Shown here: one piece after another, positions 1-2,465 of the stretch
How the letters are laid out: every line of letters starts with the position of its first letter
Numbering within the stretch: the stretch's first letter is position 1
Assembly: GCA_013698285.1 (NCBI GenBank)
Contig: JACCVE010000325.1
Span: 1-31,959, forward strand
Direction of reading: 5' to 3'
DNA length: 31,959 nt
Origin: Chloroflexia bacterium
Lineage (GTDB): Bacteria; Chloroflexota; Chloroflexia; Thermomicrobiales; UBA6265
Translations under genes and position numbers: made by a program
Notes under the pieces: generated by a model
Seen by the model: the letters and a program-made list of their open reading frames with translations, nothing else
What the model was told of the DNA's origin: nothing
The model's database searches: none

Positions 1-194
1 TCGGGAACGATCGAGCGAACGGTCCGAAAGGGACAACGTGGCCAGGCCGCCGCGAACCCGGTCCCCTGATCGCCGGTACCAGCCCTCAGGCACTCCGTTC
101 GCCGGATCGCCGTTCGACTTGGTCGCCCGTGGCCGAGACAGCGGCGGGCGCGGTCCCGTGTAGCCGCGACACGTGGCGGGACATATTCGACGGT

Positions 195-357
195 CAGGGC
201 TGTGTCAAAGTCGTGATTCTGCCGCGGGTGGTGAGTGTATCGCGCCGATGGGTGTCCGTTTCCTGCACTCCGAGGGATGGTCGTGATCGCATTCGGCCGA
301 GACGGTCGTGTCGGAACAGTCACGCGTATGGCACGGCCGGACTTTGACACAGCCCTG
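195..357. mobile_element. MITE (163 bp, non-autonomous IS derivative), 18-bp terminal inverted repeats, 10-bp target-site duplication
   Basis: Left end CAGGGCTGTGTCAAAGTC (195-212) is the exact reverse complement of right end GACTTTGACACAGCCCTG (340-357). The direct repeat ATTCGACGGT flanks both sides (185-194 and 358-367). The element is too short to encode a transposase. Confidence 0.9.
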
Positions 358-527
358 ATTCGACGGTACGCGACGGATGTCCAGACGCCCGATTCCGCCT
401 ACAATGGCGACATGCGTGTCTCCGAAGCGCCAGCCGCCACGGTCGACCCCACATCCCGATCCCCTACGGTGCATCGGACCCACGACATCCCCGCGGTCGT
501 TCTTCGGTGCGGAGAGGTAGGCACGGC

Positions 528-2465
528 GTGCTAGGGCAGGTCATCGACGTCCGGCTCGTCTCCGACGGCGCGCTCGAACGCATCACGCGGATCGGCGCCC
601 GGGCCTCGGGGGGGACACTGGCCGTGCTCCTGCGCGACGGGAACGGTCCCGACGTTTTCCACGGCGCGGGCCAGGCGGCCGCCGAGCGGGCCGAACACGA
701 TGGTGACGACGACTCGCGGCCAGTTGCCCGCGTGCTCTGCGAGATGATCGTGGACTCCGGCGTGCCGATCACCATCGCCGACCTGCACGCCCACCCGTTG
801 CCGGAGGTATCCCGCCTCGCCGTGGCTGACCCCACGCGGGCCGTCCTCGGCACGCCTCTCCTCGACGGGGCCGGTCGGGTGGCCGGGGCGATGTGCCTCA
901 CCTGGACCCGGCCACGGACCTGGACGGTCGACGATTCGCTAGTGCTCTCTGACGTCCGTGGCCTGGTCGAAGCGCACCTTGGGCTCGTCGCCTCGGAGGA
1001 CGCGGTCCGGGAGGCGCTAGACAACGACAGGGCCGCGTTCCGCCTGGTCGTCGATGCCAGCGGCGATGGGGTGCTGACCGGCACCGCGGACGGTACGATC
1101 ACCTTCGCGAACGATGCCTTCTTGCGGATCATCAGGCGGCGGCGCGACGAGATCGACGATGGGTCGTTACGGTGGACCGACCTGACCCCGCCCGAGTGGG
1201 ACGGGGCGGACCGCCTGGCGATCACCCGGGTCGAGGGCGGTCTCCCGAACGATCCCTACCAGAAGGAATTGCTGCTGCCGGATGGGACGCGCGTGCCGGT
1301 GATGATCACCGTGTCGAAGCTGGGGCGCGGCGATCTGATCGGCACGGTGATCGACATGACCGAGCAGATGAGGACGCGCCGGGCGCTGCGGGAGACCGAG
1401 GAGCGGATGTGGCTCGGGATGCGGGCCGGTCGGATGCGGACCTGGGACCTCGACGTCACCACGGGCCAGATCAACTGGCTGAACCCGGGCGGCCTCGTCG
1501 ATGGGCCAGAACCGGGCGACTGGGCCGCGTTCCAAGCGGCGATCCACCCGGACGATGTCTCGGCCGCCCGCGAGGTGATCGAGGGTGCGTTGGCCTCGGG
1601 ATCGTCGTTCCAGTTGGAGTTTCGCTGGGCAGATGACCACACGGGGGGCCGGTGGTCCTTTTGTTCGGGCAACGTCATGGGTGCCGAATCGGGACCGACG
1701 GCGCGGATCGTCGGGACCGACATCGACATCACGGCCCGAAAACGTCTCGAAGGGGAGCGACGAGCGTTCATCGATACCCTGGCCCATGATCTCAAGAACC
1801 CGATCGCGGGACTGCAGATGCAGGTGCAGCTCCTGCGGCGGCGCGGTGCAAGCGTGGCGGACATGGCGCGGGACGAGCTGCTGGAACGGCTGGGTGTGAT
1901 CGACGAGAGCATCCGCCGGGTATCGCGACGCATCGACGAGCTGACGGAGTTCTCTCGCTTGGAGATCGGTTTGCCGGTCACGCTGCAGATCGCGAGCGGA
2001 GACCTCGTGGCCCCCGTGCTCCGGGCGCTCGAGGAGACCCAGGCGACCACGGTGCAGCACACGATCACCCTACCGACTCCGGTCCAACCGGTGGTCGGTC
2101 TCTGGGACAGTGAACGCCTGGAGCGGGTCTTCGTGAACTTGTTCGCCAACGCGGTCAAGTACAGCCCCGGCGGTGGCAACATCCAGGTCCAGATCGCCGT
2201 GACCGGTGACGAGGTGAAGGTCCAGGTCACCGACCAGGGGATCGGGATCCCCGCCGGAGACATCGCGAGCCTCTTCGACACCGGCCGCCGCGGCACGAAC
2301 GTGGGAGCGATCCGTGGGTCGGGGATCGGACTCGCCGGGTCGGCCGCATTGATCCAGCTGCATGGCGGCACCATTGGGGTCGAGAGCGAGGTCGGCCGGG
2401 GATCGACGTTCACCGTCAGTCTGCCCATCCGCACGCCCGGAGGCGCCTCACCCCCACCGGCCTAG
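528..2465 (+). CDS. Cytoplasmic sensor histidine kinase (GAF-like, PAS, PAS, HisKA, HATPase_c)
   Basis: H-box LAHDLKNP, N-box VFVNLFANAVKYSPGG, G1 DQGIGI, G2 GSGIGLA, C-terminal VESEVGRGSTFTVSLP. PAS-like segments (ITFANDAF..., WDLDVTTGQINW...IHPDD). Start placed at GTG 528 after SD-like GGAGAGG (511-517); the ORF is open from 507. Confidence 0.9.
   Translation: MLGQVIDVRLVSDGALERITRIGARASGGTLAVLLRDGNGPDVFHGAGQAAAERAEHDGDDDSRPVARVLCEMIVDSGVPITIADLHAHPLPEVSRLAVADPTRAVLGTPLLDGAGRVAGAMCLTWTRPRTWTVDDSLVLSDVRGLVEAHLGLVASEDAVREALDNDRAAFRLVVDASGDGVLTGTADGTITFANDAFLRIIRRRRDEIDDGSLRWTDLTPPEWDGADRLAITRVEGGLPNDPYQKELLLPDGTRVPVMITVSKLGRGDLIGTVIDMTEQMRTRRALRETEERMWLGMRAGRMRTWDLDVTTGQINWLNPGGLVDGPEPGDWAAFQAAIHPDDVSAAREVIEGALASGSSFQLEFRWADDHTGGRWSFCSGNVMGAESGPTARIVGTDIDITARKRLEGERRAFIDTLAHDLKNPIAGLQMQVQLLRRRGASVADMARDELLERLGVIDESIRRVSRRIDELTEFSRLEIGLPVTLQIASGDLVAPVLRALEETQATTVQHTITLPTPVQPVVGLWDSERLERVFVNLFANAVKYSPGGGNIQVQIAVTGDEVKVQVTDQGIGIPAGDIASLFDTGRRGTNVGAIRGSGIGLAGSAALIQLHGGTIGVESEVGRGSTFTVSLPIRTPGGASPPPA

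Follow-up and report, generated by a model that had tools for sequence, protein, structure and literature searches.

Near the start of the window, by which we mean the whole stretch of 31,959 nucleotides analysed here (contig C492 of MAG G000, an assembly of 632 contigs that is 82% complete), a non-coding segment of 163 bp with perfect inverted repeats lies between a small conserved gene and the gene of a sensor histidine kinase. The question raised by this locus is what the segment is, which transposase would move it, how recently it arrived and whether it matters to the kinase. It is highly probable in our judgement that positions 195-357 are a MITE of the ISAs1 family, mobilised in trans, recently inserted and still polymorphic, which would leave the kinase largely unaffected.

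Anatomy of the Element

The features of the locus are the following.

1-69, + strand: 3′ end of a small conserved hypothetical gene, stop TGA at 67-69 (tblastx match of 1-42 to G001)
185-194: left target-site duplication ATTCGACGGT, 10 bp, occurring once where the X1 allele is empty
195-357, no strand given: MITE body, 163 bp, non-coding, long-hairpin fold, with copies elsewhere
195-212, + strand: left terminal inverted repeat (TIR) CAGGGCTGTGTCAAAGTC, the same as the ends of L040:950-2190 and L151:2-1269
340-357, - strand: right TIR, complement of CAGGGCTGTGTCAAAGTC, including an outward-facing TTGACA at 344-349
358-367: right target-site duplication ATTCGACGGT, 10 bp
399-433, + strand: conserved block CTACAAT...GTCTCCGAAGCGCCAG, compared with G001 L030:1147-1186
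528-2465, + strand: sensor histidine kinase, with the Pfam architecture GAF-PAS-PAS-HisKA-HATPase

The original prediction described perfect 18-bp TIRs, an element of 163 bp and an exact 10-bp repeat at both ends, and all of these were re-derived from the sequence. The arms at 195-212 and 340-357 are complementary at 18 of 18 nt, or over 19 nt when T194 and A358 are included, and both copies of ATTCGACGGT are exact and abut the ends of the element. We chose CAGGG...CCCTG ends with a 10-bp duplication over 19-nt arms with 8 bp because other copies fix the boundaries. By chance, perfect 18-nt inverted pairs at most 400 nt apart are expected at about 0.002 per window at 69.5% GC, and at about 1e-8 when the abutting 10-bp direct repeat is included. 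A segment of 163 bp leaves no room for a transposase gene, and none is present; the element is below the size of about 300 bp usual for MITEs, its TIRs are perfect, and its description as an intact MITE without transposase stands.

The element is predicted to form an RNA hairpin of -79.6 kcal/mol (z = -4.1), and paired double changes were seen among the copies at three base pairs of it. Taken together with the 5′ intergenic position and the constant length of the copies, these observations would fit a structured regulatory element of the host, or a REP-like palindrome, that is kept in place and is not mobile. A hairpin is nevertheless what TIRs yield by construction, and the Rfam scan of window positions 1-700 (E ≤ 1) gave no match for the element. 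The position and flanks of the copies, which bear further on this reading, are described below.

Copies of the Element

In G000 the element occupies at least four loci: the window itself, C387 with a different right flank, C290 and C456. The copy at C387:195-357 is 97% identical to that of the window; the copy at C290:4715-4877 is 87% identical and has its own perfect duplication CGAGACGCTG, and the one at C456:1-93 is truncated where the contig begins. Two copies are present in the sister species G001, one in C339 with a duplication matching at 9 of 10 positions (GCTCGCGACT/GCTCGCGTCT, that is, a near-perfect GCTCGCG(A/T)CT), and one in C365 interrupted by the contig end. The copy search found none in 59 further genomes of the same family and order. 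The Chloroflexota MAG G192 (L152), a genome flagged as unpublished, is the source of one further complete copy, whose duplication GGTGCTCGGG is perfect and whose flanks are dissimilar to G000; the evidence for both copy and duplication depends on this genome. In the soil metagenome Ga0136611 the element is on four contigs, of which L226 is the window locus itself with an identical duplication, and L229 is a locus not met elsewhere, where the duplication GCTACGACC has 9 bp.

Every complete copy has exactly 163 bp, and the copies are 82-98% identical. Most copies, that of the window among them, have a duplication of 10 bp; two have one of 8-9 bp. It was expected that further copies would have duplications of their own, and this was borne out at unrelated loci, with perfect repeats at C492 (ATTCGACGGT), C290 (CGAGACGCTG) and L152 (GGTGCTCGGG), the 9-bp repeat at L229 and the near-perfect one at C339; the copy in C387 has no duplication. 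Metagenomes were also scanned for a longer parent element, using 21 nt of the interior as the pattern; the scan recovered the four genuine MITE contigs and, within coding sequence, five matches due to chance, and no parent was found. Further flanks abut the element ends in the public run X1, where one pair implies a duplication TTTCAACTAG.

One contig of X1 (depth 30.5) has the MITE end (357) joined to the MITE start (195) through the 10 letters GGCCTTTGGC. Two element ends thus face each other over a gap as long as one duplication. Tandem or adjacent insertions at one target could account for this joint, and a circle junction is less likely at that depth. The element ends being identical, either orientation would fit.

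Empty Sites and Recency of the Insertion

The spacer between the two genes measures 458 nt in the window, which is the sum of 285 nt and the 173 nt of the element plus one copy of the duplication, and the orthologous spacer of G001 measures 271 nt and is without the element. When the element and one duplication copy were removed, the two spacers were collinear over the insertion point (CGACGGTAC in the window versus CGACGTAC in G001), with an alignment score of 36 as compared with -24 ± 13 for shuffles. At the C290 locus the element is likewise absent from the orthologue G001:C346.

We also compared window positions 1-1200 with the Logan contigs of four public runs (X1, X2, X3, and X5). In X1, a terrestrial metagenome, a filled contig of 249 nt spans positions 165-413 at depth 41, and a contig of 76 nt at depth 22.7 joins 184 to 358 through 10 ambiguous letters and skips exactly 173 nt. 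The two contigs give the pattern of a filled/empty bubble, the empty allele being one short unitig whose left side covers 20 nt (30 nt with the duplication). The contigs of X2, X3, and X5 contain no empty-site joint, which is no evidence of absence in these contig-level data. The element is thus polymorphic in presence, at the orthologous loci of G001 and in the X1 contig, and the empty site that the original prediction proposed to look for in relatives or raw reads was found in G001 and in the contigs of X1, which shows a recent insertion. On sequence comparison, the best explanation is that the element inserted here once the lineage had separated from that of the sister species. According to the single short unitig of X1, filled and empty alleles persist in at least one environmental population.

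Parts of window positions 1-900 were present in twelve public runs from 11 studies, recorded as terrestrial, sand, soil, and outdoor metagenomes of 2017-2025; four of the runs were compared as above, and the habitat should be read with care.

These empty sites, in the sister species and as an allele in X1, weigh against an element of the host that is kept in place. So do the differing flanks of the copies, each with its own direct duplication, and the identity of the ends with those of transposase-bearing elements (see Family Assignment); conserved placement beside orthologous genes across species was not seen. We consider it very improbable that the segment is a host structure of that kind, and retain the reading of an ISAs1-family MITE.

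Assembly Branch and the C290 Locus

The assembly graph branches at this locus. C492 and C387 share their first 357 nt and each overlaps the end of C45 by 127 nt, the divergence beginning with a SNP at position 128. Against window positions 1-357, C387 (G000:C387:1-2290, L002) has one SNP in the flank and five in the MITE; to the right of the element it continues into an unrelated flank (GCCCGACCGG...), without a duplication. X5 likewise contains the junction at which the element's right end meets the C387 right flank, and in X3 SNPs of the C387 type accompany a junction from that end to the kinase flank. Two origins may be considered for C387, namely recombination between two MITE copies in a strain that co-exists, or a chimeric contig joined at the repeat.

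Considering the branch and the missing duplication of C387, the repeat structure of this locus could itself be thought an artefact, produced when contigs of a fragmented MAG were joined chimerically at a repeat. The same order of flank, element, and flank, with the duplication, is nevertheless found in the independent contig L226, the arrangement is also present in unitigs of X1-X3, and both flanks are contiguous in the sister species. An artefact is for these reasons extremely improbable, and the inserted MITE is the reading that we follow below.

At C290:2891-5379 (L003/L212), deletion of the element and one duplication copy turns two open frames into one frame of 772 codons, which runs to the contig end, and similarity to G001:C346 ends exactly at the insertion point. 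A Pfam search of the two halves of this frame gave no match for either, and the opposite strand is also open, for which reasons gene disruption at C290 is not claimed.

Family Assignment

The element had been attributed to the IS4 family (ISH8-like group), an attribution that is not supported. An 18-mer scan over one genome per species led to two full-length elements with these ends, one of 1241 bp in G016 (L040:950-2190, equivalent to G016:C18:400950-402190) and one of 1268 bp in G072 (L151:2-1269, from G072:C214), with about 75% DNA identity between them. In both, the two 18-nt ends are identical to those of the MITE, and both genomes belong to the same GTDB family as the window, in other genera; the ends are in this way common to the MITE and to autonomous elements in genomes of that family. 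Many 18-mer matches of a C/G variant inside genes of unrelated phyla were set aside as chance.

The transposase tested against the family models was that of the 1241-bp element. Its 394-aa ORF, which is bounded by these ends, scored 184 bits with the ISAs1 model NF033564 (cut-off 70), over positions 2-311 of 314, and 19.3 bits with the IS4 model NF033592, below the cut-off of 115. It also matched PF13808 and PF01609, and the N-terminal domain DDE_Tnp_1_assoc is present, which we take to be typical of ISAs1 transposases.

The idea that an IS4-type transposase moves an IS4-family (ISH8-like) MITE draws on the CAG...CTG ends and the duplication of about 10 bp, on the DDE_Tnp_1 fold (PF01609) common to ISAs1 and IS4 transposases and on the five DDE_Tnp_1 loci of the MAG. 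The DDE chemistry and the duplication length of the ISH8 group are indeed alike, and the difference lies in the 19 bits that the transposase owning these ends obtains with the IS4 model. ISH8-group ends begin with CAT, unlike the CAGGG found here. The search for the TIR at the flanks of the G000 transposases, which had been proposed as a check, gave no match on the contig of any of the five loci at up to 4 mismatches in 18. Taking into account the ends, the score of the G016 transposase, and the published signature, according to which ISAs1 elements have inverted repeats of 14-22 bp beginning with CAGGG and a 10-bp direct repeat (PMC11946415), we assign the element to the ISAs1 type and not to IS4/ISH8; CAGGGCTGTGTCAAAGTC has 18 nt and this beginning, and the window and other copies have duplications of about 10 bp (8-10). 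An IS4 origin appears to us most improbable.

The likeness to known ISAs1-family insertion sequences (ISAs1 of Aeromonas salmonicida, the H-repeat/ISEc1 of E. coli, Francci3_2330/2941 of Frankia) consists of the CAGGG ends and the 10-bp duplication. In contrast to them, the MITE has 163 bp, no transposase, and an interior unrelated to the full-length elements found, and its host is a Chloroflexota (Thermomicrobiales-type) MAG. With the G016 and G072 elements it shares both 18-nt ends and 3-9 nt more at one end, the common sequence being limited to the terminal 18-27 nt: MITE positions 1-21 match the right end of the L040 element, and positions 138-163 match the right end of L151 at 93%. Since nothing beyond these termini is common, the MITE is not demonstrable as an internal-deletion derivative of either, and no copy of the G016 or G072 type was found in the MITE-bearing G000 and G001. 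Among the ISAs1 loci that score highest in relatives (L157-L186), only L173 has related ends (CAGGGCTTATTCAAAGTC); those of the others differ.

The full-length element L040:950-2190 is without a flanking duplication (ccgcgtgcgg / ctttgacccg) despite its perfect ends, which suggests later rearrangement or recombination between copies.

Among better known elements, the Correia elements of Neisseria and the RUP/BOX elements of Streptococcus are, like this MITE, short, TIR-bounded, non-coding, multi-copy, mostly intergenic, hairpin-forming, and trans-mobilised; they belong to other IS families, with other ends and duplication lengths.

The Transposase Partner

The original prediction placed an active autonomous partner elsewhere in the genome. 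No ISAs1 transposase was detected in G000 by HMM or by tblastn (E ≤ 1) in this 82%-complete MAG, and none was found by the search of G001, whose assembly is also incomplete; repeats assemble poorly in both. ISAs1 transposases are present in 45 of 101 related genomes, including the unpublished G011, G048, and G088, and G192 has two ISAs1-type genes, both without these ends. Because no ISAs1 transposase was found in G000 or G001, the partner is taken to be unassembled, lost, or external.

Other Short Elements with the Same Ends

Several Chloroflexota genomes contain many further short elements, 100-281 bp long, that have these 18-nt ends and unrelated interiors; one Ardenticatenaceae MAG has ten or more of them. 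Their duplications are mostly 10 bp, perfect or matching at 9 of 10 positions, and a few have 9 bp. Examples are listed below.

L059:5911-6162, short element with the same ends
L072:6889-7067, short element with the same ends
L103:4331-4507, short element with the same ends
L196:1375-1518, short element with the same ends
L201:1419-1518, short element with the same ends
L067:2061-2184, short element with the same ends

Judged by their ends, these elements seem to form a MITE superfamily that belongs with a single ISAs1 subgroup. A search of the available literature for ISAs1-derived MITEs returned nothing relevant, and the set could be the first of this kind to be described. A wider proposal, which we put forward tentatively and regard as rather doubtful, is that the CAGGGCTGTGTCAAAGTC end defines a large and currently active ISAs1-driven MITE superfamily across Chloroflexota, which would be mobilised across lineages, possibly by non-resident transposases, and would give rise to rearrangements at the strain level, of which the C387 junction would be one.

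Neighbouring Genes and the Kinase Promoter

The small upstream ORF is complete in L226:962-1264, where it is 88% identical to G001 L030:729-1001, and a Pfam search of it gave no match. The kinase is 64% identical to its G001 orthologue, the alignment beginning at GTG 528. This in-frame codon is preceded by GGAGAGG at 511-517, and the frame is open from GTG 507; the kinase start is likely GTG 528, 170 nt from the element. The distances given in the original prediction, namely about 40 bp from the element to TACAAT (400-405) and 170 nt to the kinase start, agree with this codon and with the GGAGAGG motif.

The block CTACAAT...GTCTCCGAA(G/A)CGCCAG is conserved in G001 at an equal distance from the gene, and the rest of the spacer has diverged. 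Positions 399-433 are probably the native kinase promoter (a putative -10) with its leader, judging by this conservation, and more broadly they are a candidate for a promoter with a leader or an operator. The block is untouched by the insertion, which is 41 nt upstream of CTACAAT. As it is upstream of this conserved block, the core promoter and leader would be intact. A sigma-70 promoter and terminator scan of window positions 1-700 found nothing. The outward TTGACA of the right TIR (344-349) has no usable -10 at a spacing of 16-18 nt (TACGCG, 367-372), and the same was seen in the other copies read. Most probably, kinase expression is largely unchanged by the insertion. The predicted hairpin of the element could impede read-through from the upstream gene.

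Proposed Sequence of Events and Its Meaning

From these data the following sequence of events may be proposed. An ISAs1-type DDE transposase supplied in trans would recognise both CAGGGCTGTGTCAAAGTC ends, and the 163-bp element would insert at a staggered cut whose repair would leave a duplication of 10 bp and occasionally of 8-9 bp. The target would have been the 285-nt spacer between the small conserved gene and the GAF-PAS kinase gene, after the split of the sister species. The effect on the kinase would be near-neutral, with the element placed upstream of the conserved promoter-like CTACAAT block; at most, the insertion would add a strong hairpin that could block read-through from the upstream gene.

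A MITE is an ordinary kind of element, and what is added here is a new example of the ISAs1 type. For annotation, the result is a correction of the family from IS4 to ISAs1. The repeat is also flagged as one that breaks, and possibly mis-joins, contigs of this MAG (C492, C387, and C45). The filled/empty polymorphism is a natural example of recent MITE activity in an uncultured soil Chloroflexota, and the element, being small and having defined 18-nt ends and known autonomous relatives, would be a convenient substrate for work on ISAs1 transposition, which has been studied little.
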